Assembly (NCBI GenBank): GCA_964424515.1
Contig: CAYRJJ010000001.1
Coordinates: 1,747 to 65,746, forward strand
Reading direction: 5' to 3'
Length of the DNA stretch: 64,000 nt
DNA from: an uncultured Candidatus Finniella sp.
GTDB lineage: Bacteria > Pseudomonadota > Alphaproteobacteria > Paracaedibacterales > VGCI01
Part shown: piece after piece, positions 7,111-43,424 of the stretch
Position numbering within the stretch: position 1 is the stretch's first letter
Layout: every line of letters begins with the position of its first letter
Position numbers and translations under genes: made by a program
The notes under the pieces: generated by a model
What the model was told of the DNA's origin: nothing
The model's database searches: none
The model's input: the letters and a program-made list of their open reading frames with translations, nothing else

Positions 7111-8082
7111 TTATTGGCTTCGGACGAAAGTAAAATACGCAGTCATCATCTCACTTTCTTCCGCAAGTGCGTTATCCAATTCTAATTGGGCAGCTTTCAC
7201 CTGCTCTGTTTGCTTTGACCAGGTCGCTTCCGTATCTTTCTCTTCCAGGGAACCCGAATTCCATAGCGCCCTGTACCTATTGAATGCCTCATTGCTTTGG
7301 GTCCTTTTTTCCTCTGCTTCCCGCCGTAACGTTGCTATTTGAGGACGAAGCTCACATAAAGCGCTTTCTACAAATCTTTTAGGCTTTTCTGAAGGTTTCC
7401 GGTTAGAAATTAAAACAAAGTACCTGTCAAGCATGTGGTCAAGCCGGGCGCCTGCTTCATTCAGGTCAGATTCTATGAGATATCTTACCCTATGAAGCGA
7501 TTCCGATTCTTCGTTGGCTTTATCCTTTATCTCCGGTTCAGAAGCGATGAGAGACACATATACGCTGGATGCTTCTGATGCTTTCGCGCTTATGTCTTTC
7601 AGGCTTGTCCGCAATGCAATAACTTGTGGGTGCAATGCGCATATATCTTGTATCAGCCGTCTCTTTTCTTCCTTTCGCTCTGCACGCCTTTTATTTTCCT
7701 GCTGAGAGTCCTCTTCCTTTGCTGTGAGAAGGGATGCGCGGAGCGCTTTTTCAATATCCGTCTCTGCGAAATCATGGAGAGGAGGCAAATTTTCCGAAAG
7801 GGACAGGTGAAGGACCCGCTTCAATTCCCCTTCTTCTTGATCAGAAAGATCAAGAAGAGCATTAATCTGACGTTCTCCCTCCTGATCCGCCTCATCGAGG
7901 AATTTCATTTGAGTTTCAAAGACTTGATTTTCTTGATGGGCACGTAAGCTCGCCCAATTATTTGCAAGGGCATGTTGCGTAGTAACCGTTTGGGATTCCT
8001 CTATTTTTTCAGCTGCCCGTGCAGCAGGGATCCACATAAGGGTTGCGTAAAGAAGAGTTAAAATAACCGATGAACTTTTCAT
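7111..8082 (-). CDS. Secreted coiled-coil protein with two UIM-like motifs (orphan, candidate host-interaction factor)
   Basis: Internal ATG at 8082 is preceded by GGGGGA and gives the signal peptide MKSSSVILTLLYATLMWIPAARA/AE. The rest is charged, heptad-rich sequence. UIM-like segments are DQEEGELKRVLHLSLSE and AETDIEKALRASLLTAKEE. No family recognised. Confidence 0.6.
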   Translation of the reverse strand: MKSSSVILTLLYATLMWIPAARAAEKIEESQTVTTQHALANNWASLRAHQENQVFETQMKFLDEADQEGERQINALLDLSDQEEGELKRVLHLSLSENLPPLHDFAETDIEKALRASLLTAKEEDSQQENKRRAERKEEKRRLIQDICALHPQVIALRTSLKDISAKASEASSVYVSLIASEPEIKDKANEESESLHRVRYLIESDLNEAGARLDHMLDRYFVLISNRKPSEKPKRFVESALCELRPQIATLRREAEEKRTQSNEAFNRYRALWNSGSLEEKDTEATWSKQTEQVKAAQLELDNALAEESEMMTAYFTFVRSQ

Positions 8083-8456
8083 CCCTGATCCCCCTTGCGT
8101 TATGATAGTTTTGACTCGGATTCCAGTGTCATTATATTTTTTATAATTTATTTTTCTATAAACACATTGAAAATGCAATATATGTTTTTCAGGATAGTAT
8201 TTTATCAGGTTTTGTGGATTTATCCGGGATCTCTACCGCTTTCTTTTTTCCACTTATGGAGAGAAAATGGCGAATTCCAGGCCAGAAATAGGGCGGCCAA
8301 CAACCTTCTCTTAATCATTCTTTAACGCCTGCGCTAGTATTATTTTAGAAGATGGTTATAAAAGATTCGGGTGGGTTATTGATTCTACCGTTGCCTCTTT
8401 CATAACAGATTATTAAGAAAATGTTTTTGATTAAGGTTTTATTAAGGAGTTTTATC

Positions 8457-8981
8457 ATGACTAACCATAGTGTATTTTTCAGGGCGCTTCCTTTTTTGTG
8501 CATCACGCTCTTTCTTTCTTCGTTAGCCTGGGGAGCTGAAAATGAGGATGATGCCGCAAACCAGCCAGAGGAGGCGACGGCAAATGCGGGTAGCGCGCCC
8601 TCTCCTTCTTCCGAGCAACCGTCAGAATCTGAACACGAAGAGGCTGGACAAGAAGATAAAGCAGATACGGCTGATGCATCCTCTCCTCCTTCCGAGCAAC
8701 CGCCAGAATCTGAACACGATGAGAGCGGACACGAGAGTGAAGCAGATGCGCCAGCAAGTGAGAAAGATGAGCAGTCTGAACTTATAGATGAAGAAGCCGA
8801 ATACAATAAAAAACAATTAGAGCACAACAAAAAGGTACTTAAGGTTAATAAAGCTGTAGCGGAACTTAAAGCGGAACAAAAAGAACTGGATAAGGAAGGA
8901 AAGGAAATTGCAAAGAAGGAAAAACAGCTTAAACGACAGTCCTCTTCCCCTGCATCGCATAAGCATAAGGAAGAAGATTAG
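8457..8981 (+). CDS. Secreted acidic protein with tandem 27-aa Ser/Glu/Pro repeat and Lys/Glu coiled-coil tail (orphan)
   Basis: ATG at 8457 is preceded by AAGGAG (8444-8449). Signal peptide ...FLSSLAWG/AE. Two tandem 81-bp units lie at about 8598-8678 and 8679-8755. The C-terminus is KAEQKELDKEGKEIAKKEKQLK. Confidence 0.6.
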   Translation: MTNHSVFFRALPFLCITLFLSSLAWGAENEDDAANQPEEATANAGSAPSPSSEQPSESEHEEAGQEDKADTADASSPPSEQPPESEHDESGHESEADAPASEKDEQSELIDEEAEYNKKQLEHNKKVLKVNKAVAELKAEQKELDKEGKEIAKKEKQLKRQSSSPASHKHKEED

Positions 8982-24934: not shown

Positions 24935-26920
24935 CTAATCTTTTTTTGCCTCCAGAATACTAATGACTGTGAATGGATCGCAATCCAGCAGATCTTCACT
25001 GCACCCAACATTAAGCCCCCCTTCTTGAAGCTTTTTCAGAACCTTAGCACGTTTTTCCATGCTATCATGCTCTGTCTTATTAAGCGCTTTCTGAATCGAT
25101 TTTTGATAATAAAAACCACATAACTCCGGGTTGTTTAGTTGATAGTATATCATACAAAGGATCACATCAACATCATCCCTATCTGTTTCTTGATAATTCA
25201 AAGACTTAACTTGGGAGATAGCGTAATCTTTTTCCTCTGTTACATGTTGGGCAAGGAAGAGGAGAAAACCTAACCGAGTTTCTAAATTAACTTGATCAGA
25301 TTCAATAATAGTCTTTAAACGGGCAAGCACTTTTTTTCGATCAATTTCCTCTTTGGCGTGCTGAGCAAGCAAGAAGAGGGCGTCTAACTCAGCGTCTATA
25401 GTAACCTGATCAGATTCAGCAAGCGCTTTTAAGAGGTTAATGGATTTTCCCCGGTCAATTTCTAAAGCAGGCTTAAAAAAATCATCTATATAATACTGAA
25501 GAACAGAGATAAGCTTCTCCGGTTGTACGTTGAGTAAATAGCGGACTAGCCTCCTTGCTTCTTCAGGATAATGATAGTGAACGAGGTCGCTGATCAGGGA
25601 ACCCTGACAAACCTTTAAAATTTCCTCTTCGGGTTGTGACAGAATATCATCCAGCGCTTTTGGAACCTCTTCCCGTCTTTCCGCTCGCATCAGGAGTGAA
25701 AGGGCGAGCCCCTTCACGTTATCAGCAAGTTGCGCCCAATCAGAATAAAGGTTTTCAGAAAATTGCCGGACACGGAATTGAAGATGCTCATCGTCAATGT
25801 TGTTATCTTTAAATGCATTAAATGACTGAACTTTATTTCCCAAGGTATTTTGATCATTCGGTAATTCAACGACCTTTCTGAGAACTTTAACTGCGAGATC
25901 CGGACGCCCTAAAAAAAGAGCGTTGTGAATTAAGAGGGAGTTATCAGAATCAAGGCAGAATTGGGGATTATGGATGCACCACTCAATCATTTCAATGGCT
26001 ACCTCTCTTTTTTGAGATTTACTATAAATAAAATCATGATTTATGTTAACGATATTTCTCTTCAGGAGGTTTGTATCCCCGAGGTTTATCCCCGCCATTA
26101 AAAGCTTCCGTGCAATAACGTCCCTTGCTTGAGGAAAACAGGCTGAAGAAAACCTAAATTGTCCAAGAGTCTCATAATAAACGCCTGGCCGCGCCGGGTT
26201 AAGTGACAGCAACCACAATTTATTTAAGGATAACCCATAAGGGTGAGAAAATTCCTGAAGTAACCGCATGACCGGATCCAAAGGATCAGCCGTATTGACA
26301 AGCGGTGATGCCAGCGCCACCTTAAGAACGGCATAAAGCTTGCCGAGGTCTTCCTCACTTTGCCCTTCAAGCCGTTGAGGAAGGCTGTTTTGGTGTGGCA
26401 AGAAGGCGGATTGGATAAAGTCCGGCTCAAACCAGCTGGAAAGATCCGTTGCAGAGACGCTCGCAAGGGCAGCGAGCTTGAAGAGACCGTCTTTCGTGTT
26501 CCGCGTCTTGAAGTGAAGAATATCGAGCGGAATGGAATGCGCTCTTGTTTCCGTCAGGCAATAATCATTTAAGCGAAAGAAGGAGGCGCTCACCAGATCA
26601 GAAAAACAACGGCAGATGAGCCTCACGGCTGGAAGCGTCCCTAAATCTACATAAGGAAGAATATTCCCGTAGATAATTTCCAAAGGGAGGGTGAATAGAG
26701 GAGTACCTTCTTGAACCGTCTGTTGAGCCTGATTTAATATTTCGTCAACGCTCTTGTCACGCTCTTGATGTTTCTTATAAGAAGCCAACGGAAACGCGCG
26801 CGTTACAATTTCCCGAAGGGACTCAAGCGCCCGCGCATCTCTTTCCGCTTCGGCTGCTTGCGCCGTTAAGGAGAAGAAAACGACAAGATAGCTCAGGCAA
26901 AAAGAAAGATATTTTTTCAT
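24935..26920 (-). CDS. Signal-peptide protein with eukaryotic-type F-box motif and helical repeats (candidate effector)
   Basis: ATG at 26920 follows AAGGA and gives the signal peptide MKKYLSFCLSYLVVFFSLTAQA/AE. Residues ~75-117 read LFTLPLEIIYGNILPYVDLGTLPAVRLICRCFSDLV, an F-box pattern. An internal duplicated helical unit ESDQV...LAQH appears twice. Confidence 0.6.
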   Translation of the reverse strand: MKKYLSFCLSYLVVFFSLTAQAAEAERDARALESLREIVTRAFPLASYKKHQERDKSVDEILNQAQQTVQEGTPLFTLPLEIIYGNILPYVDLGTLPAVRLICRCFSDLVSASFFRLNDYCLTETRAHSIPLDILHFKTRNTKDGLFKLAALASVSATDLSSWFEPDFIQSAFLPHQNSLPQRLEGQSEEDLGKLYAVLKVALASPLVNTADPLDPVMRLLQEFSHPYGLSLNKLWLLSLNPARPGVYYETLGQFRFSSACFPQARDVIARKLLMAGINLGDTNLLKRNIVNINHDFIYSKSQKREVAIEMIEWCIHNPQFCLDSDNSLLIHNALFLGRPDLAVKVLRKVVELPNDQNTLGNKVQSFNAFKDNNIDDEHLQFRVRQFSENLYSDWAQLADNVKGLALSLLMRAERREEVPKALDDILSQPEEEILKVCQGSLISDLVHYHYPEEARRLVRYLLNVQPEKLISVLQYYIDDFFKPALEIDRGKSINLLKALAESDQVTIDAELDALFLLAQHAKEEIDRKKVLARLKTIIESDQVNLETRLGFLLFLAQHVTEEKDYAISQVKSLNYQETDRDDVDVILCMIYYQLNNPELCGFYYQKSIQKALNKTEHDSMEKRAKVLKKLQEGGLNVGCSEDLLDCDPFTVISILEAKKD

Positions 26921-27060
26921 CACAATCCTTTCAAAATTTAGCAAATTTAATGCAAAATACACTGTAACGGGGAATGAAGAAAATACAACAGGAAAAATCT
27001 CAAGGAGGATCATCAAAAACCGGTGGGATGGGATTATCCTATGATAAGCAGGGTATCCCC

Positions 27061-27957: not shown

Positions 27958-28173
27958 AAAACGCTTCTTGCCTTTTTGCTTATAATAAAAGAAGGAAGGG
28001 GAGAAGGGCAATGATATTCCCGCAAGCCCGTATTTTAGGAGCTATGCGAAAGGTGCATATTTTCCTTGACGGTATGGAGATGAAGAGAGATATCTTAAAG
28101 CGTTTCTCACCATTTTCTTTCCGAATGGATAGAGAAAATATAGACAGGCGTCATTCTTCTATCGGTGGGGTCG

Positions 28174-29154
28174 ATGAATTTTATCAAGTATAACGGAAAA
28201 GGAAACGATAAGGCTAAAAAGCAGGAAACCAATCAATTCATTGATATAACGGCATGGAATGGAAATGAAGAGATGAAACCCTATGAGGAAGGCGCACGTG
28301 AAAAAAATATCATAACGTGTCCCGCTCATGCTCCCTTTCCTTTTCTCATTGCCAATCATGATTATATGTTCAAGCAGTCTAATCGCCGTTATCCAGCCCA
28401 ATTCTGGGTAGAAATAATAGCCTATCGTCTTGGTTGTCTGATGGGCGTCCCCGTACCGCCCGCTTTCATTGGTATTGATGAAAGACGGGAAATCGCAGGT
28501 GCGGTTATTGAATGGTTTTACAGTTATCCAGGAGAACCAGGGGAAGAATTTATCCCGGGAGGCGATCTTTTTCAAAAGCGCAACCCTGACTATGAACGGA
28601 AAAAAGGCAAGCGCCATAATCTTATGGATTTAATAGAGATCATTAAAGAAAGGGATTTGTCCCAAAATTGGCAGAAAGAATGGGCGAAGATTTTTTGCTT
28701 TGACGCATTGATCGGGAACACGGATCGCCATCAGGATAATTGGGGCATCCTGCACGACGAAACAGGAGATTACTTTGCTCCGGCATTCGATAACGGAACG
28801 GCAATGGGGCACGAAATCACCGACAAAAAGCTTCTTAACAAGCTTAATCGTCTTGAAAAATATATTCTGGCGCCCAAAGCGACGCATCACATGAAATGGC
28901 GCCGACATGACGATAAGAGGATGGGGCATATTGATTTTTTAAAACGGCTTATGGATCAATACCCCCAGACGATAGAGCCTATGCATCAGTGTTTGAAATT
29001 CTCTCTTCAACCCTTTGCGCAAGAAGTTCAGGAACTCCTGGATTTAAGTAACGCTTTGCCTGAACCTTATGTTAAATTAACGTCAGAAAGAGCCAATTTC
29101 ATTATTAAACTAACTGAATATAGACATAAAAAAGCATTGGAGATTTTGACGTAA
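28174..29154 (+). CDS. HipA-family Ser/Thr kinase core (short, HipT-like; no N-terminal subdomains)
   Basis: Catalytic-loop signature FDALIGNTDRHQDNWGIL and APAFDNG (the DxG equivalent). About 327 aa. ATG at 28174 follows GGTGGGG, with GTG at 28165 as an alternative. No HTH gene is adjacent. Confidence 0.75.
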   Translation: MNFIKYNGKGNDKAKKQETNQFIDITAWNGNEEMKPYEEGAREKNIITCPAHAPFPFLIANHDYMFKQSNRRYPAQFWVEIIAYRLGCLMGVPVPPAFIGIDERREIAGAVIEWFYSYPGEPGEEFIPGGDLFQKRNPDYERKKGKRHNLMDLIEIIKERDLSQNWQKEWAKIFCFDALIGNTDRHQDNWGILHDETGDYFAPAFDNGTAMGHEITDKKLLNKLNRLEKYILAPKATHHMKWRRHDDKRMGHIDFLKRLMDQYPQTIEPMHQCLKFSLQPFAQEVQELLDLSNALPEPYVKLTSERANFIIKLTEYRHKKALEILT

Positions 29155-29886
29155 ATGCATTTACTTCCGCAAATTATAGAACCTGGGCGGTTATTGGTGG
29201 TTTGGCAGACGCTTCGGGAAGATTTGGAGCGCCAGAGCGGGACGGGCAAGCGATATATTGTCGGTGAACTTGAACGAGTTCATGACAATATCCTGTTGCG
29301 CTATTTTGTGAATTCACCAGATTTTAAAGATGCATTAAAATTGGGATTTAAAGGATTCTCAATCTTTGATGCGGCTCAAGAACTCCATGAACTCAACGTT
29401 ATGAAGACACTCGAACGACGTATTCCGCCGCGCCAGCGCACGGACTTTGACAACTTTCTCATCTACCATCGTATTGATCCAGCAATACGCGATCAGATGA
29501 CCGATTTTGCGCTTCTTGGATATACAAGCGGCAAACTCCCCGGTGATGGCTTTTCATTCATTCATACGTTTGAAGAAGCGCTGATACCGTGTGAAGTCAC
29601 CATCGACGTTGCCGGAATTCGGCATTACAAGGATTCTCTCCCCCCCTTAGAAACGTTGATAGATGTGCCCGTGAATTTTAAGCTTGATCCCGCTAACCCT
29701 GAAGACCCCAGGGCAGTCGCTATTGAAATACAAGAGGGAGTGCGCATCGGCTATGTAAATCGGGCGCAAACACATATATTTCATCAGTGGCTCCGCCACT
29801 ATCGGGTTGAGGGAATCATCGAACGGGTTAATGGGACCGTCGATCGTCCCAATATCCTTTTGTATGTAAAAGTCACTTTAACATAA
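29155..29886 (+). CDS. HipA-N-terminal-like domain fused to C-terminal HIRAN domain
   Basis: The ATG directly abuts the kinase TAA stop. The C-terminus VAGIRHYKD...FKLDPANPEDPRAVAIEIQEGVRIGYVNRAQ matches the HIRAN pattern (G.R.Y ... L.REP.NP.D.NAI.V...G..IGY). The N-terminus IVGEL..LLRYF and RIPPRQRTDFDNFL..MTDFALLGYTSGKLPGDGFSF resembles HipA N-domain motifs by eye only. Confidence 0.65.
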   Translation: MHLLPQIIEPGRLLVVWQTLREDLERQSGTGKRYIVGELERVHDNILLRYFVNSPDFKDALKLGFKGFSIFDAAQELHELNVMKTLERRIPPRQRTDFDNFLIYHRIDPAIRDQMTDFALLGYTSGKLPGDGFSFIHTFEEALIPCEVTIDVAGIRHYKDSLPPLETLIDVPVNFKLDPANPEDPRAVAIEIQEGVRIGYVNRAQTHIFHQWLRHYRVEGIIERVNGTVDRPNILLYVKVTLT

Positions 29887-29959
29887 GTCCTCTTTCCGCT
29901 TGACCTCAATCCTTTCTTTCTCATAAGGTTTCCGTTAATTGCGAGAGAAGGAGGCGCCT

Positions 29960-30835
29960 ATGACATCCCGATTTATAGCGGGTATCAAAGATGTGGTTGA
30001 TCAATACGATGCGTTTGTCATTGACCTCTGGGGCGTGATACACGATGGATCTAAACCCTATCCGAGCGCGCTGGAAACCTTAAAAAAATTGAAAGGTTTA
30101 AAAAAGACAACCCTTCTTTTGTCGAACTCTCCGCGTCGTGTGTCCGCTTCGGAGAAACATCTGGAAAATATGGGCGTTTCCCGGGATTTTTATACGCATA
30201 TTTATACGTCTGGTGAAGATACCCATCAGGGTCTCAAAAACCGGCCGGATGCCTGGCACCAGAAGCTGGGAAGCCGCCTTTACCACATCGGGCCTGAGTT
30301 TCATCAGCCGATGTATACAAGCCTGGATTATGAAAAAATGCCTTCTCCTGACGAGGCTGATTTTCTTTTGACCACAGGGGCGGATTTCCCTCATATCAAT
30401 GATTATGAGGCAATTTTGAAAAAAGGGATCGATCGGGGTCTACCGATGCTGTGCGCCAATCCGGACCGGGTGGTTGTCCAGGATGGACACCTGATTCTGT
30501 GTTGCGGCGGTATAGCTGAACGATATGAACAATTGGGCGGTAATGTTTTTTATCACGGCAAACCCTTCCCTGCTGTTTACCAGCCCGTCTTTTCCCTACT
30601 CGGTGGAATCCCTCCTTCCCGCATCCTCGCCATAGGGGATTCTCTGACCACTGATATGAAAGGCGCCCAATCCAGCAGCATGGATGGCGCTCTTATTATG
30701 GGTGGCATCCATCATGAAATTTTACTCCCTTACGGAAAAATGACGCCTGAAACCCCTCAGCTTCTGCAAGGCTTGGGCGCAAAAACAGGCATTACGCCCA
30801 AATATGCGTTACCTGAAATGAAGTGGGAAACGTGA
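29960..30835 (+). CDS. HAD-superfamily hydrolase, subfamily IIA
   Basis: Motif I is FVIDLWGV (the DxxG variant of this subfamily). LLSNSPRR and a C-terminal GDSLTTD motif are present. ATG at 29960 follows GAAGGAGG. Confidence 0.8.
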   Translation: MTSRFIAGIKDVVDQYDAFVIDLWGVIHDGSKPYPSALETLKKLKGLKKTTLLLSNSPRRVSASEKHLENMGVSRDFYTHIYTSGEDTHQGLKNRPDAWHQKLGSRLYHIGPEFHQPMYTSLDYEKMPSPDEADFLLTTGADFPHINDYEAILKKGIDRGLPMLCANPDRVVVQDGHLILCCGGIAERYEQLGGNVFYHGKPFPAVYQPVFSLLGGIPPSRILAIGDSLTTDMKGAQSSSMDGALIMGGIHHEILLPYGKMTPETPQLLQGLGAKTGITPKYALPEMKWET

Positions 30836-31013
30836 CAGGGGCGCCAGCAGATGGTATACATAACCCTTCTATCGTTTAATTTTTCTCACGCAAAAAAGGG
30901 AGGAATTGCTTTATTATTATATAAAACCCTTCCTTAATCCCACTTTTTTCTTGCTAAAAGTTAAAAAAAACTGTTATCTATTATAGTTCTTCAAAATTTT
31001 AAGCTGATGAGAA

Positions 31014-33680
31014 GTGATGAAATCCATACCCATCAAGTCCAGTCCTTTTTTCTCTTTAAACGATATTGAAAAAGATTTTTCTCCAGCTTCTTTCGCGAAG
31101 GGGCAAGCGTACCAAACAGAAAACCGCGTTACGCACCTTGAGATAGGCCAGGATAAGCAGGGCCATTGGAAAATCAAATCCATTATTCAAGGCTCCCGAA
31201 ACAATATCTACCACACAGATATTATTGTGAATGTCAAGGATCGGACCTTTGGTTTTGATGGGTACTGTTCCTGCCCCATGGACCATAATTGCAAGCATGT
31301 GGCAGCTTCCCTTATTGAAGCCATCTCCCGGCGCACCCTTTCATCCTCATCTATAGATACCGTTGAAACCACGGCGGAAGTCCCAACGCCCATTTTTCGT
31401 ATCATGACGAATAATGTGCGTTTTAAAGTGCGCCCCTGGTCCATGACGCAGGATGAAAAGAAGTTTTTGGCTCATCTTTCCTTTTCTTATTCAGGAGGGC
31501 GCATTCCGCATACTGAACCCATTGACAAAAACAGCGTTCCCCGCAACCTTAAAGCTGAACAAGAATTTCTCTCTCATCCCCTTTTAAGCCACTGGAAAAA
31601 ATTGGGCGACTTTGCTCATCAAATTGACCCTCTCACCCTGGAAATAGGCAATCTCATTCTTGATGTAAAAACCCCAGGTATTCAGACCTTGTTGACTGAT
31701 GAAAAAGTCATCCAGACAGCCATGGCGCTGGCAAACGAAATTTTTCCTCAACTCCTGTCTGAAGGCTGGCAAATTGAAACAGATCCAAGCTTTCCTTTTC
31801 AGTCGGTTAAAAATATGGGGGAATGGTATGCCAACATTGATAATGAGACGACCTCTGGTATCGATTGGTTTGATTTGGAAATGGGTATTGAAATTGACGG
31901 AAAACGCATTAACATCCTCCCCCATATCGTCCGTTTGCTGCGTAATCCCAATGTTCGCTCTGCTATGGACAATGACCAGTTAAGTGATGCGGAAATGATC
32001 TATACCCAGCTGGACGACGGCCGCTATCTGCCCATCCCGGCTAAGAAAATTCAATTTATTGCCCGTACCCTTATAGAACTCTATGACTTTAATGCCTTAA
32101 CCCATGATGGCCGTTTGCGCCTTTCCACATGGCAGTCCGCCCAGTTAGCGGAACTTGAACAGGCCATGTCGGCTAGCCAGCTACGCTGGTTCGGTTCAAG
32201 TCAATTGCGTGAGCTTGGCAACAAACTGCGCGACTTTAAAATAATTGAGAAAGTTATTCTTCCGGCAAGCTTTCATAATACCTTGCGACCCTATCAGGAA
32301 GAGGGCGTTAGCTGGTTACAATTTTTGCGAATCCACAATCTTAATGGTATTTTAGCCGATGATATGGGGCTGGGAAAAACGATTCAAGCATTGGCTCATA
32401 TTATAGTGGAAAAAGAAAGCGGACGGATGAAAAGTCCCGTCCTGATTGTTGCGCCTACCAGTTTGATGGCCAACTGGAAATCTGAAGCGGCCCGCTTCGC
32501 TCCTCTTTTGAAAGTCCTCATTCTCCAGGGAAATGAACGCAAAAACGACTTTGACCGTATAAAGGATCATGACCTCATTTTAACAACCTACCCCCTCCTT
32601 TCACGGGATAAGGATGTTCTTCTTGCCCATGGTTACCATTTACTGATTTTGGATGAAGCCCAGGTGATCAAAAATCCAAATACCATGGCTCACCGCATTG
32701 TCCAGCAGCTTAAAGCGAACCATCGCTTGTGCTTGACGGGAACCCCGATGGAAAATCACTTGGGCGAACTCTGGTCGTTATTTCATTTTCTTATGCCCGG
32801 ATTTTTGGGCGACAATAAAAAATTTACGCAAACATTCCGGAAGCCCATTGAAAAACGACAAGACCAGGATCGCCAGCATGTCTTAACCCGCCGGGTTCGT
32901 CCCTTCGTCCTGCGTCGCACAAAGGAAGAGGTTGTTTCAGAGCTGCCCGCAAAAACTGAAATTATTCAGCATATTGATCTTTTGCCAACCCAACGGGACC
33001 TTTATGAATCCGTTCGCTTGGCCATGCACTCAAAAATTCAAGCTGAAATTGAAGAAAGAGGATTTAAATACAGCCAGATTGTTATTTTGGACGCTTTGCT
33101 CAAAATGCGGCAAGTCTGTTGTGATCCCCGCCTCTTAAAAATTGAGTCCGCTAAAAATGTGCGGGAGTCCGCCAAGCTTCAGTTTTTAATTGATACCCTT
33201 CCTGAAATGATTGAGGAAAACCGCAAAATTCTTCTCTTCTCCCAGTTTACCAGCATGCTGGCGTTGATTGAACAAGAACTCAAAAAACTCAAAATCCCTT
33301 ATGTTCTTCTCACAGGTCAAACGAAAGACCGTCAAACCCCCATTAATGACTTTCAATCCGGCAAAGTCCCTTTATTCCTGATCAGCTTGAAAGCAGGGGG
33401 AACCGGCCTTAACCTGACAGCAGCGGATACAGTTATCCATTATGACCCGTGGTGGAACCCGGCTGTGGAAAACCAGGCGACCGACCGGGCATACCGTATT
33501 GGCCAGGACAAACCCGTCTTTGTCTATAAACTGGTGACAGTTGGTACGGTCGAAGAAAAAATCCTGGACATGCAGCATTATAAAGCAGCCCTCTTTGCGG
33601 GCGTGTTTGATGGCCATACGTCAAGCAGGGGGCCAATCACGCCGGAAGATCTCGAAGCTTTGTTTGAGGCGTTACCTTAA
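31014..33680 (+). CDS. SNF2-family helicase with N-terminal SWIM zinc finger
   Basis: 888 aa. SWIM motif CSCPMDHNCKHVAA. SNF2 motifs LADDMGLGKT, LILDEAQVIKN, LTGTPMEN, and helicase-C LISLKAGGTGLNLTAADTVIHYDPWWNPAVENQATDRAYRIGQ. Confidence 0.9.
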   Translation: MMKSIPIKSSPFFSLNDIEKDFSPASFAKGQAYQTENRVTHLEIGQDKQGHWKIKSIIQGSRNNIYHTDIIVNVKDRTFGFDGYCSCPMDHNCKHVAASLIEAISRRTLSSSSIDTVETTAEVPTPIFRIMTNNVRFKVRPWSMTQDEKKFLAHLSFSYSGGRIPHTEPIDKNSVPRNLKAEQEFLSHPLLSHWKKLGDFAHQIDPLTLEIGNLILDVKTPGIQTLLTDEKVIQTAMALANEIFPQLLSEGWQIETDPSFPFQSVKNMGEWYANIDNETTSGIDWFDLEMGIEIDGKRINILPHIVRLLRNPNVRSAMDNDQLSDAEMIYTQLDDGRYLPIPAKKIQFIARTLIELYDFNALTHDGRLRLSTWQSAQLAELEQAMSASQLRWFGSSQLRELGNKLRDFKIIEKVILPASFHNTLRPYQEEGVSWLQFLRIHNLNGILADDMGLGKTIQALAHIIVEKESGRMKSPVLIVAPTSLMANWKSEAARFAPLLKVLILQGNERKNDFDRIKDHDLILTTYPLLSRDKDVLLAHGYHLLILDEAQVIKNPNTMAHRIVQQLKANHRLCLTGTPMENHLGELWSLFHFLMPGFLGDNKKFTQTFRKPIEKRQDQDRQHVLTRRVRPFVLRRTKEEVVSELPAKTEIIQHIDLLPTQRDLYESVRLAMHSKIQAEIEERGFKYSQIVILDALLKMRQVCCDPRLLKIESAKNVRESAKLQFLIDTLPEMIEENRKILLFSQFTSMLALIEQELKKLKIPYVLLTGQTKDRQTPINDFQSGKVPLFLISLKAGGTGLNLTAADTVIHYDPWWNPAVENQATDRAYRIGQDKPVFVYKLVTVGTVEEKILDMQHYKAALFAGVFDGHTSSRGPITPEDLEALFEALP

Positions 33681-33773
33681 CCTTTAAGGAAACTGTGCGC
33701 TTCCGGCAAGCTGGCGTTCCGTCATTTATAAATTTTAGGGTTACGCATATGTGAATATTCAGTTAGAGGTTGC

Positions 33774-33936
33774 CAGCGACTCCCGCTGAAAAACAGGCAA
33801 ATGATTTGATAATAAATTGTTTTATTAAGATATATTTGCGAAAAATCCCCCTATACTATTGATTTTATATGAATAATTATTCCCATCAATAACAAGGAGA
33901 TATGTCATTTTTTTGCAGATATAGCGGGAATTGCTC
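33774..33936. mobile_element. MITE-like element R1, copy 2 (163 bp, degenerate TIRs, opposite orientation to copy 1)
   Basis: Ends are cagcgactcccgct and agcgggaattgctc. The interior aligns at about 88% to the reverse complement of 2469-2681, with one ~45-bp and one 6-bp gap. No TSD is visible. Confidence 0.7.
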
Positions 33937-34176
33937 TAAAATTTTGAGGATTTTAAAACCTGCTTTAATGGATTTAAAATTTGAAGTAAGTTTGGTATAA
34001 AGTTACTTGGACAAGGAGGAAGACAAACGTATGCGGGTGATTTATCAGGCCCGGAGTGAGAACGGATCCGGCATTATTTTGAACAGACATGAGTAAAAAT
34101 ACTATTCGCATATCTTCTATCGCTTTAACTCTTGGACAAATTTATTAAGACAGGTTCTTAACTTTAGGAAAATATT

Positions 34177-34497
34177 ATGAAAAAAAGTAAATTAATTTTA
34201 TTGGCGATCTCAGCATTTTTCAATCAAACATGGGGAATGGATGAGGGTAATCGACAGGCTTTTGAAAGTTGCGAAATCCAAAAACAAAAAATGGTGGCAA
34301 CTGGTTTATTAACGCCTGATGAACGTCTTGCGTTAGACCAGGAAGAATCAAGGATAAAAGCTCGGATAGAAGCAGTAATAAATGGTGATACAACCCGGGA
34401 ACAAGGTCTTATATTATCTTTTCAAGCGTATGTTGAAAGATTCGCCTCCCTCTCACAGGAGGCTGACCGCCGCGTCAACCAATCGCACCAGAATTAA
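34177..34497 (+). CDS. Small putative secreted protein (orphan)
   Basis: 106 aa. N-terminus MKKSKLILLAISAFFNQTWG is hydrophobic. AT-rich context. No recognised family. Confidence 0.45.
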   Translation: MKKSKLILLAISAFFNQTWGMDEGNRQAFESCEIQKQKMVATGLLTPDERLALDQEESRIKARIEAVINGDTTREQGLILSFQAYVERFASLSQEADRRVNQSHQN

Positions 34498-34521
34498 CCC
34501 TCCCAAATCCCTTGAATTCCC

Positions 34522-36183
34522 TTACAGGGTAAGAGTATAGAGATTGTCTTCTCCGAGGCCGACATCTAGCAAAAGTTGCTTGGCAATTTGCCAGTAACGG
34601 GTTTTACGGGGAATAACCGTAGGATCATCCTGGTGAAGTATATGCATTGAAACAGAGCGCCAATGCTGATCCACTAAAGACCGGGCAGAAAAGTGGAGAG
34701 AATGCTTGTTACGCAAGACGCTACCCCGAAGGCCCGTTGACCCTTCCACAAGCTTAATATAAGCACTCATTTCTAATTTATCTTTTGAAGTAGCTAAACC
34801 AAGCAAAATCCTTCCTGTTAATGAGTGCTCCTCTCCCAGCATAAAGGCGCTAGGGATTATTGCTCTCACGAATAGGGGGTTAGTTTCATTCTTGATTGTA
34901 GATTTCTCATCTTCTTTCTTATATTTTTCCCATGGCTTTAAATCATAAAATTCTTCGGGGCTTGTTAAAATTGATTTCGATGCTTCATCGGATGGGACAA
35001 TTCTCATTTCTATATCTGCTCCTGCCTGTGTCAATTTTTCAGCAGGGGAAGATAATAGATCAACTCCAGCCGTTACTTTTAAAGTTGTTTCTGATCCTGC
35101 CTTTGAAATTTCCGGATCATTTCCAGTAGATGCCGTGGGTTGGTCCTCTTGGCATAATGATGGAAGGTTCAGATTAGCCTGTACTGGAAGAACCTCACAC
35201 GTTAAGGCGTCTATAAGGCTTGGAGCGCTAACTAACTGATCAATGGCTGTTTTCTCCACTCCGGCATGGTGGCCTTCTATAGTGGCTTTTTTACGCTTCT
35301 TTGCCCGCTTCTTGCTTTTGGTTATTTTAGAGGGTTGTTTGCTCTCTTCGGACGGAGCATGACCTTGATTTTTGTTCAGATCATTTTCCCTCAACAACTT
35401 TTGTTCTTCTTTTTGTAGGAGAAATGTTTCTCCTTTGGTCATTATTTCACACAACGTTGTCATAAATATCTCGGATACATATTCAACATCACAGTGAGAA
35501 TATCGGTGCAAATCACTACTAACGTCCTTATTGAATTTACCACTTTGCTCTTTTATTATTTGATTTATTGATTTACCTAAAACTGGCGCATGGATTATAC
35601 CTCTCGTGAGCAATCTTTCATCTCGTATTTTATCTGATTTATCTAATAATCTATTTATTACAAACCTTAAAAATTCACTTTCTCTATGTTGTTTAGAGTC
35701 AATTTTATAAAGTTCAAAAGTCTGGAAATATTCTAGTAAAAGATCTAAATCTCTAATAATGGTTGAGTATGAGTTGTAAATATCATACCAATCGTTATCA
35801 GACTGATTTTTTAACAATTTAAACCGCCAGTTGAGCGCTTCCAAAGCGTGTTTCAGATCAAAAGGGGAGTTTTCATCTTTTTTGATTGACAGAAGCTTCA
35901 CGAGAATACGCAGTCTAGGATTCATTTTACATATTTCTTCTTGACTGCCTTTCCAGAAATTTATTTCACTCTGAATCAAGGAACCACAGAACTGATAATA
36001 ATCCTGCGCTGTTTCGAAAACTGGGGTCGTCGAGATATCTATTTTTTCAAATGCATATCCTGCTCTCAGCTTCTCCAGGGAATCAGCAGAAGGAGCCGCG
36101 GAAAGAACATCATCTTGCATAGCATAGCTATTGTTTTCTAAAAAAATACTTGTAAACACAATTAAAAATAAAAAGATTTTCAT
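34522..36183 (-). CDS. Large orphan protein with N-terminal signal-like segment and NLS-like basic patch (candidate effector)
   Basis: 553 aa. N-terminus MKIFLFLIVFTSIFLENNSYA. Basic patch KSKKRAKKRKK at residues 289-299 (35287-35319). Low-complexity Ser/Pro/Glu linker. A very AT-rich upstream region spans 36184-36400. Confidence 0.6.
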   Translation of the reverse strand: MKIFLFLIVFTSIFLENNSYAMQDDVLSAAPSADSLEKLRAGYAFEKIDISTTPVFETAQDYYQFCGSLIQSEINFWKGSQEEICKMNPRLRILVKLLSIKKDENSPFDLKHALEALNWRFKLLKNQSDNDWYDIYNSYSTIIRDLDLLLEYFQTFELYKIDSKQHRESEFLRFVINRLLDKSDKIRDERLLTRGIIHAPVLGKSINQIIKEQSGKFNKDVSSDLHRYSHCDVEYVSEIFMTTLCEIMTKGETFLLQKEEQKLLRENDLNKNQGHAPSEESKQPSKITKSKKRAKKRKKATIEGHHAGVEKTAIDQLVSAPSLIDALTCEVLPVQANLNLPSLCQEDQPTASTGNDPEISKAGSETTLKVTAGVDLLSSPAEKLTQAGADIEMRIVPSDEASKSILTSPEEFYDLKPWEKYKKEDEKSTIKNETNPLFVRAIIPSAFMLGEEHSLTGRILLGLATSKDKLEMSAYIKLVEGSTGLRGSVLRNKHSLHFSARSLVDQHWRSVSMHILHQDDPTVIPRKTRYWQIAKQLLLDVGLGEDNLYTLTL

Positions 36184-36705
36184 AAATTTTTCTCAGTGAA
36201 TTTAGTTAATAATAATAATTTTAATATACTAGATTTTTTTGAACATCAATTTTTTTAATTTTACTAACTTTTTACTCAAAAAAAATATAAATTCATTATT
36301 CATTATATTATATATTTGTGTAATATTTTTTTATAATTCTTAGTAATTACTCATTCTATATCTGTCACCCATGAAAAGATCTGTAATCGTTCTGCCTCTT
36401 TTGTTGGAATAAAAAAGGATATAAATTGCATTTTCAAAAGGGATTTTTGAATGCTGACGATATCTTCCGCGCTAACTCATCCTTGTAAAGGTTTTTGCTC
36501 TTCTCCCGCAGTGATTATGTTGTTTGGGCTTTGTCGCATCTGTTGAGATGGCGTGTGGAATGAAATAGAATGCATTCAAAGCCTGGGAGGCACATTGAAG
36601 GCTGACGCTATCACCATCATTAGCCCATCATTTTAAGGGTTTTTGCTCTTCACTCTCTTTGGGCGTCCGGAAACAGAACCAAATTTTTTGTAAGGACAAC
36701 GAAAC

Positions 36706-38148
36706 ATGACCCAAAAAAACCTTTTTTGGTTTCGTCAAGATTTACGCTTGTCAGATAACCCGGCTTTATATGAAGCCGCCCAAAGTGGCGAGGTTATGGC
36801 CGTTTATATTTTTGACGAAGATCACCGCGCCGATTTTAGAATGGGATCAGCAAGCCGTTGGTGGCTTCATCATTCCTTATCAGCGCTTAACCGCAAGTTG
36901 GGCGGTAAATTAAATATTTATCGGGGAAAGTCTCAAGAAGTTATTCTTAGGCTTATTTCAGAATATTCATTTCAAGCAATCTATTGGAACCGTTGTTACG
37001 ATCCTTTCCGAATTAAGGCTGACTCAGAAATAAAGTCTTTCCTGAAAAAAAGAGGGATTGAATGCAAAAGCTTTAATGGTTCCCTTTTATGGGAACCTTG
37101 GGAAGTTATGAAGGAGGATGGCACACCCTACAAAGTTTTTACGGCTTTTTATCAAAAAGCCAGTCTTCAGGGCAAATATCCCGGTAGACCTTTGCCAGCG
37201 CCGAATCCATTAACCCTCGTAAAAGAAACGCTCAACGCGCTACCTCTTACAGAGTTGGGTCTTTTGCCGAAGATAAAATGGCATGCTTCCCTTGAGCGCC
37301 AGTGGGTCGTCGGAGAAGAGGGTGCGCAAGACAGGTTGGCTTGTTTCCTGGAAAGTGGTTTGACCAACTATAAGGAAGGGCGTGATTTCCCTTATCGCCA
37401 AAATGTATCCCGATTATCACCCTGTCTTCACTTTGGGGAAATTTCACCCCGCCAGGTTTGGCATGGCGTGGACGCAGGAAGTACCAGCTTTCATATTCCT
37501 GAACAGGACAAGGAATATTTCTTCAGGGAACTCGGCTGGCGGGAATTTTCTTATCACTTGCTTTACCATTTCCCTGATTTTCCTTATCAGAATTTTCAAA
37601 AGAAATTTGACCGCTTCCCATGGCAAGTAGACGAAACTTTACTCAAAAAATGGCAGCAGGGACAAACAGGATATCCTATCGTCGATGCAGGAATGCGGGA
37701 GCTTTGGCAAACAGGGTATATGCATAACCGCGTGAGGATGATTGTTGGGTCATTTTTAGTCAAAAACTTGCTGCTTGACTGGCGCCATGGGGAACGATGG
37801 TTTTGGGACTGCCTTGTGGATGCCGATTTAGCGAATAACAGCGTAAGCTGGCAGTGGGTAGCTGGCTCAGGCGTGGATGCCGCTCCTTATTTTCGTATTT
37901 TTAATCCCGTTACCCAGGGAGAGAAATTTGATCCTGACGGCATCTATACCCGGCGTTTTGTCCCTGAACTGAAGAATATGCCCAATACCTGTCTTTTTAA
38001 ACCCTGGGAAGCCCCGGAATATATTTTGAAAGCAGCAGGGGTGATTTTGGGGCAAACGTACCCGAAACCTGTCGTCGAGTTAGGGACCTCACGTAAAAAA
38101 GCGCTCGAAGCTTTTGCCTCTTTACCAAAAGAGCTTCAATTTGCTTGA
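36706..38148 (+). CDS. phrB: Deoxyribodipyrimidine photolyase (class I CPD photolyase/cryptochrome family)
   Basis: 480 aa. LFWFRQDLRLSDNPAL, TGYPIVDAGMRELWQTGYMHNRVRMIV and WQWVAGSGVDAAPYFRIFNP motifs. Confidence 0.9.
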   Translation: MTQKNLFWFRQDLRLSDNPALYEAAQSGEVMAVYIFDEDHRADFRMGSASRWWLHHSLSALNRKLGGKLNIYRGKSQEVILRLISEYSFQAIYWNRCYDPFRIKADSEIKSFLKKRGIECKSFNGSLLWEPWEVMKEDGTPYKVFTAFYQKASLQGKYPGRPLPAPNPLTLVKETLNALPLTELGLLPKIKWHASLERQWVVGEEGAQDRLACFLESGLTNYKEGRDFPYRQNVSRLSPCLHFGEISPRQVWHGVDAGSTSFHIPEQDKEYFFRELGWREFSYHLLYHFPDFPYQNFQKKFDRFPWQVDETLLKKWQQGQTGYPIVDAGMRELWQTGYMHNRVRMIVGSFLVKNLLLDWRHGERWFWDCLVDADLANNSVSWQWVAGSGVDAAPYFRIFNPVTQGEKFDPDGIYTRRFVPELKNMPNTCLFKPWEAPEYILKAAGVILGQTYPKPVVELGTSRKKALEAFASLPKELQFA

Positions 38149-42884: not shown

Positions 42885-43135
42885 GGTCTAGCCGGCTTTA
42901 ATTCGCAGCATAGGACAAAGTAACGACAATTTTTCACCATAGCCCTAAGGGGGATCCAGACCCGACTGAACGTTCCGCCATACTATATGCTCCTTCTTGC
43001 ACCCGATAATGGGAAAACTATAAGGTATTGAGATAGTGAACTCAAGGGGTTTGGCGGAATTGTTTTTCTTCCATAGACCATCCTTCTTCATACTGTAAAA
43101 ATACTTCCCGGCATTCTTGATGTATTTTAATAAAA

Positions 43136-43373
43136 CCTGATTACCAACAATGTTCAGCTTGCTTTTGGGGCTTATTAAAACTAGGAGAATTCTTGATGTT
43201 TTACGACACATACCCCTAAATTTGACCAGGATTTTGTAAAAATAAACCGTCTAAAGCCAGTTGCTACGACAAAAATTAACCTCCATAACATATACTTAAA
43301 CCCAAGGAATCACTGGCTAAATCAATGAATTTCCTAGTCCTGAAAAGCAAGCTGAACATTGTTGGTAATCAGG
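43136..43373. mobile_element. MITE-like element R6 (238 bp, perfect 31-bp TIRs, 8-bp TSD TAATAAAA)
   Basis: 43136-43166 is cctgattaccaacaatgttcagcttgctttt, the exact reverse complement of 43343-43373. Flanking direct repeat taataaaa at 43128-43135 and 43374-43381. There is no ORF of transposase size inside. Confidence 0.8.
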
Positions 43374-43424
43374 TAATAAAATGATCTGCGCCGGGTTTCG
43401 CTTCTCATCGCGCCTGCCAGATAG

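Follow-up and report, generated by a model that had tools for sequence, protein, structure and literature searches.

Among amoebae, ciliates and flagellates, symbionts of the Holosporales are widespread, and the molecules that they use on their hosts are hardly known. CdtB is a bacterial protein that is exported through Sec, carries a nuclear localisation signal (NLS) and acts in the nucleus. RARP-1 of Rickettsia, a Sec-exported protein with a disordered region, was first taken for an effector and was later found to be periplasmic. The immunity genes of pore-forming colicins are oppositely oriented and have their own promoter. Here we describe two convergent genes, a small one for a 106-aa protein and a large one for a 553-aa protein, that occupy positions 33681-36705 of a 64-kb stretch of DNA from an uncultured Candidatus Finniella sp. 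(the whole analysed stretch is called the window below). The large protein invites comparison with PRP1 of Holospora obtusa, a periplasmic protein of 63 kDa that has a signal peptide, is released into the host macronucleus and has weak DNA binding (PMC9866348). The Holosporales are obligately host-associated and are equipped mainly with Sec and the type VI secretion system (T6SS) (PMC11909080, PMC8163844).

The precedents of PRP1 and CdtB show that a Sec signal and action in the nucleus are compatible with each other. The reading that we tentatively favour, with confidence a little short of even, is that the segment is a vertically kept, lineage-specific, Sec-exported two-gene host-interaction module whose large protein is released into the protist host. 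What had appeared to be an orphan becomes a defined lineage-restricted two-gene family with a domain map, an NLS-like cluster, a candidate site made up of H497, H514, H517 and D519, and an obligatory partner gene.

The large protein, its family and its partner gene

An earlier interpretation made from the letters of the DNA and their translations (the sequence-only reading) had called the large protein an orphan without recognisable families. The absence of recognisable families holds for both open reading frames (ORFs), neither of which belongs to a Pfam, NCBIfam or PHROG family. The label of orphan has to be given up. An exhaustive HMMER search of 1.84 billion representatives returned 28 cluster representatives at E<=1e-3, 18 of them at E<=1e-10, with lengths of 425-591 aa. 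Several are full-length at 26-38% identity (P0002, for example, at 3.7e-75), identity across the large-protein family is 20-38%, and P0035 on an NCBI contig is identical to the 553-aa protein. A word-indexed search with the single protein, the full-family alignment and the C-terminal-domain alignment had only the near-identical P0001 and P0004 among the matches listed. The named members come from Candidatus Paracaedibacter sp., Candidatus Paracaedibacter acanthamoebae (WP_038463965.1) and unclassified alphaproteobacterial metagenome-assembled genomes (MAGs). All are annotated as hypothetical, and no family member scanned singly has a Pfam match. Among named members the family thus appears confined to Paracaedibacter-like obligate symbionts of protists, which would fit a role in host interaction.

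The representation of the family in databases is affected by the assemblies. In L090 (1-438) and L091 (1-382), independent metagenome assemblies of close relatives, the contig breaks inside the large gene and leaves a 106-aa C-terminal fragment, P0004, which was annotated as a gene. The 5' half of the large gene, AT-rich and of low complexity, seems to be an assembly breakpoint, and such breaks will let the family look rarer and more fragmentary than it is.

From its N- to its C-terminus the large protein, of about 60 kDa, has a putative signal peptide, a helical domain, a predicted disordered loop with the K/R cluster at its start and a PW motif at its end, and an α/β domain (Table 1). Its N-terminus, MKIFLFLIVFTSIFLENNSYA followed by MQ, looks like a type I (Sec) signal peptide, with cleavage placed by eye after SYA; this putative signal peptide of the large protein itself had been overlooked before. 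In 19 of 21 family members one or two basic residues precede a hydrophobic N-terminal core of 10-15 residues, and a hydropathy and charge scan found no later transmembrane segment in any of them. An AF2 model from a 19-sequence alignment is confident for residues 32-275 and 445-550 and disordered for 279-444, with an overall pTM of 0.62. The linker at residues 301-411 has a net charge of -12 and is 48% S/T/P/Q/A/G. The disordered loop is hard to align, yet it is found in every family member. Within the PW motif P417 is almost invariant, and PW[EKQLT][KEQRAT][YF] has a match in 19 of the 21 members.

Structure prediction and a remote-homology search had been proposed with the sequence-only reading as checks on the 553-aa protein; they yielded the family described above and no relative in PDB or by Foldseek. 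PDB sequence and profile searches with the large protein and its family gave no match apart from the near-hit described below, and Foldseek with the whole model against PDB gave insignificant helical-bundle or BAR-like matches alone (E of at least 0.6). A sub-threshold match of residues 412-442 (34858-34950) to the integrin β cytoplasmic domain (Integrin_b_cyt), with an E-value of 9e-4 and 19.4 bits against a cut-off of 23.4, was taken as probable chance. It is driven by PWEKY...NPLF, which is NPxF/Y-like, and no protein other than the window protein and its 93% orthologue shows it.

The basic patch KSKKRAKKRKK had been likened to a classical NLS, and this description proved accurate both in its coordinates and in the likeness drawn. 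The patch contains three overlapping K[KR]x[KR] matches and fits the classical monopartite NLS consensus. K or R occupies nine of 12 residues in this region, a density that 0.1% of shuffles of the protein reach (P=0.001), and no denser K/R cluster is present among the 54 ORFs of the window. The version of the orthologue is KSQKRAKRRKK. Across the family the densest K/R window falls at a relative position of 0.47-0.62 in 20 of 21 members, with at least seven K/R in 12 residues in 17 of these. Since the relative position is the same in 20 of the 21 members, we regard the cluster as a selected feature and not as noise. Its composition is kept while its sequence varies, as in AKKKKRRHRKKK, KHKKKKKKNRKK and TKKQKKKKNKKR. 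The cluster lies within a segment with pLDDT below 50 (residues 279-413), and combines predicted exposure in flexible surroundings with the conservation among homologues by which an NLS is judged. Nuclear targeting by the polybasic cluster is a plausible reading of these sequences.

All of the invariant columns of the family are within the C-terminal domain. G487, F498, H514, H517, P525, T528, W531, A534 and L538 are invariant in both alignments that we used (A4, 19 sequences; A5, 18 sequences), and L516 and D519 are invariant in A4 and nearly so in A5. The HF motif of H497 is mostly conserved and lies on β2, which neighbours β3. Modelled alone by AF2 the domain reaches a pLDDT of 89.8 and a pTM of 0.83, with the topology α-β-α-β-β-β-β-α. 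The best Foldseek E-values of this model are 0.05 in PDB and 0.04 in BFVD; weak resemblances to the AMPK α C-terminal domain, the PUR repeat and RnlA are not significant. The domain is new, without a detectable structural relative. The single near-hit of the PDB searches, weak (E=0.09) and local, was that of the stretch HFxA...MHxLHxD (residues 497-519; 34627-34695) with the pair of β-strands that carry the zinc ligands in an α-carbonic anhydrase (HFHA...EMHLVHKD in PDB 4x5s). The domain is much too small to be a carbonic anhydrase, and the match was judged convergent or due to chance. It also hints at a possible metal site made up of His497, His514 and His517. With this match as the support, the His/His/Asp site, together with His497, probably binds metal or catalyses, and we infer that the C-terminal domain is the functional core of the large protein.

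The presence of a 106-aa ORF with a signal peptide, and of the convergent 553-aa ORF, had already been reported correctly. What had been missed is that the small ORF accompanies the large gene as its conserved partner. Its N-terminus MKKSKLILLAISAFFNQTWG is signal-peptide-like, and the mature protein, of about 9 kDa, is helical and acidic. In L001, L082, L083 and L084-86 a homologue of the small ORF is placed tail-to-tail to the large gene (BLASTP 9e-18, HMM E 1e-43 to 1e-48), and small signal-peptide ORFs alike in size, position and orientation are found in L087, L089 and L092. Signal peptides were seen by eye in seven small partners (alignment A7). Ideas that the small protein could be related to RebB and R-bodies, or be LTXXQ/Spy-like, were dropped because Pfam gave no support.

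In every retrieved locus the small ORF, of 83-112 aa and with a signal-peptide-like N-terminus, is directly downstream of the large gene on the opposite strand, and the tail-to-tail spacer in the other loci is 6-171 bp. The pairing is kept in eight distinct loci in seven genomic contexts, with flanking genes that differ from locus to locus. L001 is collinear with the window, and the gene for P0002 is on the short contig L082. The remaining large genes are flanked by MFS and YkuD (P0003, L083), by rplQ and glycosyltransferase 9 (P0005, L084-86), by SecB (P0007, L087/88), by fatty-acid-synthesis genes (P0016, L089), and by an ABC transporter and era (P0011, L092).

Comparison with close relatives supplies the evidence for selection. 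L001, a Logan metagenome contig, runs collinearly with window positions 24509-46001 and continues right through the segment, with about 95% of the nucleotides identical. Identity is 96.7% in SNF2, 96.8% in the spacer with the repeat, 94.1% in the 106-aa ORF, 95.8% in the 553-aa ORF and 96.2% in the photolyase gene; the AT tract upstream of the large gene, at 85%, is the least conserved piece. The dN/dS ratio (Nei-Gojobori) against L001 is 0.10-0.14 in the flanks, 0.19 in the small ORF and 0.31 in the large ORF, whose orthologue P0001 is 93% identical. From the latter two values it follows that both ORFs are coding genes under purifying selection, the large one evolving faster. The metagenomic contigs L090 and L091 have the same order of SNF2, small ORF and large ORF.

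Table 1. Features of the segment and its flanks, in window coordinates (pLDDT values from AF2)
Feature	Position	Strand	Remark
SNF2/SWIM helicase gene	31014-33680	+	left flank of segment 33681-36705
AT-rich intergenic repeat copy, ~155 nt (earlier called a MITE)	33770-33923	.	second, inverted copy at 2526-2685
106-aa gene, small exported partner (putative)	34177-34497	+	ORF; residues 1-20 signal-peptide-like; mature part acidic, ~86 aa
Spacer between small and large gene	34498-34521	.	24 bp; convergent, tail-to-tail
553-aa gene, large exported protein (putative)	34522-36183	-	ORF; family of 28 cluster representatives
C-terminal α/β domain, residues 445-550	34534-34851	-	most conserved part of the family
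Motif H514-I-L-H517-Q-D519 (family MHxLHxD)	34627-34644	-	end of β3; candidate metal/catalytic site with H497
Predicted disordered acidic S/T/P-rich loop, residues 279-444	34852-35349	-	pLDDT 26-51
Linear motif YDLKPWEKY, residues 413-421	34921-34947	-	family consensus [YL]D.xPW[EK].[YF]
Polybasic NLS-like cluster KSKKRAKKRKK, residues 289-299	35287-35319	-	start of the disordered loop; pLDDT <50
All-helical N-terminal domain, residues 32-275	35359-36090	-	pLDDT mostly 75-94; family motifs SExxFW, CDVEY
Signal-peptide-like N-terminus MKIFLFLIVFTSIFLENNSYA, residues 1-21	36121-36183	-	hydrophobic segment after K/R
AT tract just upstream of large gene	36184-36400	-	18% GC; presumed promoter/regulatory region
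Photolyase gene	36706-38148	+	right flank of segment 33681-36705

Possible roles of the gene pair

The host-interaction module that we favour could work as follows. Both proteins would cross the inner membrane through Sec, and in the periplasm the small acidic helical protein would most likely bind the large one and serve it as chaperone, inhibitor or co-factor. Release of the large protein from there into the protist host would follow. In the host its exposed polybasic cluster may direct it to the nucleus, nucleic acid or some other polyanionic target, at which the C-terminal domain would act. Sec export, host release, nuclear targeting, the metal or catalytic site and the role of the partner are all steps that we infer.

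Several points weigh against a role in the host. A Sec signal peptide leads to the periplasm only, the T6SS as the main secretion system of the lineage does not use Sec substrates (PMC11909080, PMC8163844), and neither a type II secretion system nor another release route was seen in the 64-kb window. Polybasic clusters also bind membranes, lipopolysaccharide (LPS) or nucleic acid without nuclear import. The small ORFs of L087, L089 and L092, which belong to more divergent clades, show no homology to the 106-aa protein that is detectable by HMM, and the AF2 models were built from just 18-19 sequences. Additionally, the architecture is uniform across the lineage and the complete Ca. P. acanthamoebae genome (CP008941.1) gave one match, and both observations would suit an effector and a housekeeping component of the lineage's envelope equally well.

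Some of these points also argue for the main rival, in which both proteins stay in the periplasm or envelope. The large protein would then be a lineage-specific structural or maintenance factor whose cluster binds anionic components of the envelope (phospholipid, LPS or peptidoglycan, for example), and the small protein would be its periplasmic partner. Besides the uniform architecture, the single match in the complete genome and the exclusion of Sec substrates from the T6SS, this explanation is favoured by the Sec-type N-termini of both proteins, which carry no other secretion signal, and by the fact that some loci adjoin envelope genes (YkuD, MltA, glycosyltransferase 9 and SecB). We nevertheless regard residence in the envelope as somewhat unlikely. 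The neighbours differ at each locus so that there is no consistent linkage to envelope genes, and no similarity to any known envelope family was found with Pfam, PDB or Foldseek. The fast evolution of the large gene and the low identity across its family also speak against it, as do the cluster with its NLS consensus, the long acidic disordered loop and the AT-rich regulatory tract, which are more typical of host-interaction genes.

Another explanation is that the two genes form a toxin-immunity or addiction pair, in which the C-terminal His/His/Asp domain belongs to a toxin in transit through the periplasm (a hydrolase or nuclease) and the small protein is its inhibitor, encoded on the opposite strand and expressed independently. 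The tight pairing with a small, fast-diverging exported partner in all eight loci and the invariant His/His with a near-invariant Asp, which suggest an active site, are in line with this, and the convergent layout is known from pore-forming colicins. Putative addiction toxin systems are also present in Paracaedibacter-like symbionts (PMC8163844). On the other side, the C-terminal domain shows the highest conservation within the protein, is never swapped and is not polymorphic, and the genes are convergent rather than operonic. There is no match to a toxin or immunity family in Pfam, there are no Rhs, CDI, PAAR or VgrG delivery domains, and there are no orphan modules. Given these observations, a toxin with its inhibitor is an unlikely description of the pair.

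The host-interaction reading can be carried further than we would do at present. The module could be a lineage-wide core host-manipulation factor and a functional counterpart of PRP1, having a new fold and a two-component logic of a new kind, with the large protein being a nucleomodulin by virtue of its polybasic cluster, its His/His/Asp domain being metal-dependent, and its activity being held in check by the periplasmic partner. We think it quite unlikely that all of this is true. Should the protein reach the host nucleus, both the nucleomodulin family and its fold would be new; should it stay periplasmic, it would stand as a new part of the envelope that is specific to this clade of symbionts. 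A family member exists in the sequenced amoeba symbiont Ca. Paracaedibacter acanthamoebae (WP_038463965.1, paired with an 83-aa ORF at 7500-7751 of L092), which offers a concrete protein pair for localisation and mutation.

We consider the module a lead rather than a surprise, since genomes of this kind commonly encode hypothetical proteins that are exported. The window holds at least three other signal-peptide proteins without a Pfam match. Three ORFs at 7111-8178 (minus strand), 8421-8981 (plus strand) and 24935-27016 (minus strand) have no Pfam match and show signal-peptide-like segments after internal Met codons. One of them contains an 81-nt tandem repeat (8580-8741) that encodes acidic S/P/E-rich units, and another is helical with a KRRAERKEEKRR cluster. 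Their GC3 (GC content at third codon positions) of 0.40-0.42 is below that of housekeeping genes. The genome seems to be rich in lineage-specific exported proteins.

Composition, surroundings and origin of the segment

The segment is exactly the gap between the SNF2/SWIM helicase gene and the photolyase gene, which is where the sequence-only reading had placed it. That reading also saw in it a recently acquired horizontal island carrying an orphan effector, with a MITE (miniature inverted-repeat transposable element) at its edge. There is some basis for this. The proposed check of composition against the flanks showed a real contrast, both ORFs having a GC of 0.38 and a GC3 of 0.34 against a GC3 of 0.43-0.54 in the flank genes. 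An interspersed repeat is present at the left edge, and known families gave no matches.

The compositional contrast is most extreme upstream of the large gene. Of the 522 bp between this gene and the photolyase gene, the first 217 bp (36184-36400) form the AT tract, and the lowest-GC 200-nt interval of the whole window, at 12.5% GC against a window median of 47.5%, is found at 36141-36340. The tract was therefore rightly located and singled out before, and only its description as almost pure A/T was mildly overstated at 18% GC. Promoter-like hexamers are found within it on the minus strand at 36322/36324-36295; the overall count of the promoter and terminator scan is not above that of shuffled controls, and the scan found no terminator-like hairpin in the 24-bp spacer between the two genes. 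The extreme AT tract is presumed to be the module's own regulatory region. An interval of 100 nt with 7-21% GC is also found upstream of the large gene in L001, L083, L084, L087, L089 and L092, and in L083, L084, L087 and L089 most neighbouring genes exceed the module in GC and GC3. Because the offset recurs in four other genomes and in unrelated contexts, low GC is a standing property of the module and not the trace of a recent transfer.

Other observations make a recent acquisition very improbable. The presence or absence of the island in related genomes had been suggested as a comparison, and the segment is in place in L001, L090 and L091, at the same site and with the same divergence as its flanks. 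The hallmarks of insertion were not found: there is no tRNA in the 64-kb window, and no integrase or flanking direct repeats around the segment. The family is, among its named members, restricted to one bacterial lineage. The proposal of a host-directed effector thus survives in part, since the NLS-like cluster is plausible and conserved, and its description as horizontally acquired cargo does not. A synteny check at the nearest photolyase loci in GTDB and in more distant relatives found no common flanking gene and is uninformative at that distance; the closest photolyase relative among the GTDB representatives is from a Holosporales MAG at 64% identity. This photolyase and the names of the family members place the window most probably in an uncultured, Paracaedibacter-like bacterium of the Holosporales.

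The edge repeat itself lacks the hallmarks of a MITE. Its two copies in 64 kb, at 33770-33923 and 2526-2685, are 87-91% identical, and aligning them with their flanks sets the ends at about TTGYCAGCGA...GCAGATATA. These ends are not inverted repeats of each other, and the alignment of both copies and their flanks showed neither terminal inverted repeats nor a target-site duplication. The repeat is also present at the orthologous place in L001, and its DNA fold has a z-score of -2.8, which is a modest stability. It is best described as an interspersed repeat.

Repeats of this kind are found elsewhere in the window. Four families of 90-160 nt, mutually unrelated by blastn, occur twice each in 64 kb with 80-92% identity, three as inverted pairs and one as a direct pair (2526-2685/33770-33923, 8974-9066/52840-52932, 10657-10808/45934-46083 and 40063-40156/59462-59555). 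Both copies of the first family rank with the window's intervals of lowest GC. The spacer upstream of the photolyase gene contains a 57-nt direct repeat (36447-36503 and 36595-36651; 77% identity, 148 nt apart) that has no Rfam match. In the same spacer L001 carries 44 extra nt at window position 36672. Rfam gave no matches at the gathering threshold, nor at E<=1 on 33600-36800. A further intergenic inverted repeat, of 45 nt with 87% complementarity and a 150-nt spacer, is at 43135-43374. The collinearity with L001 has a gap of about 240 nt at window 43135 to 43374, which suggests an insertion or an invertible segment that differs between the two relatives.

The flanking genes are HipA_C, HIRAN, HAD and SNF2 on the left, and photolyase, FabF, ACP and further fatty-acid-synthesis genes on the right. 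Those on the left form a co-directional run at 28165-33680, with a HipA_C kinase-like gene (28165-29154), HIRAN (29155-29886), a HAD-like hydrolase (29939-30835) and the SNF2 helicase, whose N-terminus weakly matches SWIM. L001, L090 and L091 all keep this run, which could be a cluster of the DNA-damage or defence type.

Comparison with described systems

The last alternative, that the C-terminal ~70 aa form a HicA-like mRNA interferase domain of the double-stranded RNA-binding domain (dsRBD) fold, had been voiced on the grounds of a vague resemblance, and we give it hardly any credence: by eye RSVSMH...IPRKTRYWQIAKQLLLDVGL does recall RRSVMPRH...LRKAILKQLGL of E. coli HicA, and the AF2 model has an α-β-β-β-(β)-α core, but the idea failed with Pfam (no HicA_toxin PF07927 match in the window protein at E<=1, in 18 C-terminal domains at E<=10 or in 19 full-length members), in both hhalign comparisons of the family profile A5 (probability 0.4% with E. 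coli HicA, whose sequence was checked against PDB 6HPB, and 0.3% with A8, a nine-sequence HicA alignment built from plasmid records) and with Foldseek (no HicA or dsRBD structure among the best 50 PDB matches, all at E of at least 0.05), while the family does not conserve the position aligned by eye with what we take to be the catalytic His of HicA, and in place of a HicB neighbour the adjoining gene encodes a helical 106-aa protein with a signal peptide and no Pfam match. The likeness to HicA (PF07927; 6HPB) thus comes down to a superficial motif and the predicted α-β-β-β-α core. HicA is a small stand-alone cytoplasmic toxin that comes with HicB, whereas the domain described here is the C-terminus of a 553-aa protein that is predicted to be exported and has no HicB.

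The layout of the two genes resembles that of pore-forming colicins in that a small partner gene lies directly downstream on the opposite strand. The resemblance does not extend to the proteins, since the immunity proteins of colicins are polytopic proteins of the inner membrane, neither sequence nor domains are similar, and the C-terminal domain here is not polymorphic.

RARP-1 resembles the large protein in having a Sec signal, a long disordered region and a C-terminal folded domain, and in being the predicted effector of an obligate intracellular alphaproteobacterium. It differs in its ankyrin repeats, shares no homology with the large protein and turned out to be periplasmic. It serves both as a caution and as a model for residence in the envelope.

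The cytolethal distending toxin (CdtA/B/C) offers a functional parallel for release into the host. Its adjacent genes all encode Sec signals, and its active subunit, which bears NLS-type sequences, works in the host nucleus once it has left the periplasm. Unlike the genes of the module, which are convergent, those of Cdt are co-directional. The fold of CdtB is that of DNase I, while CdtA and CdtC are ricin-like lectins, with no similarity in sequence or fold to the proteins of the module.

PRP1 of H. obtusa was compared by its description only. A weak D5_N Pfam hit has been reported for PRP1 and is absent here, no partner gene has been described for it whereas the large gene here is paired, and no Holospora-named protein is among the 28 family matches. 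What the two share is an origin in the Holosporales, a size of about 60 kDa, a putative signal peptide, a periplasmic location (predicted for the large protein) and a novel sequence without a solid family assignment (PMC9866348).

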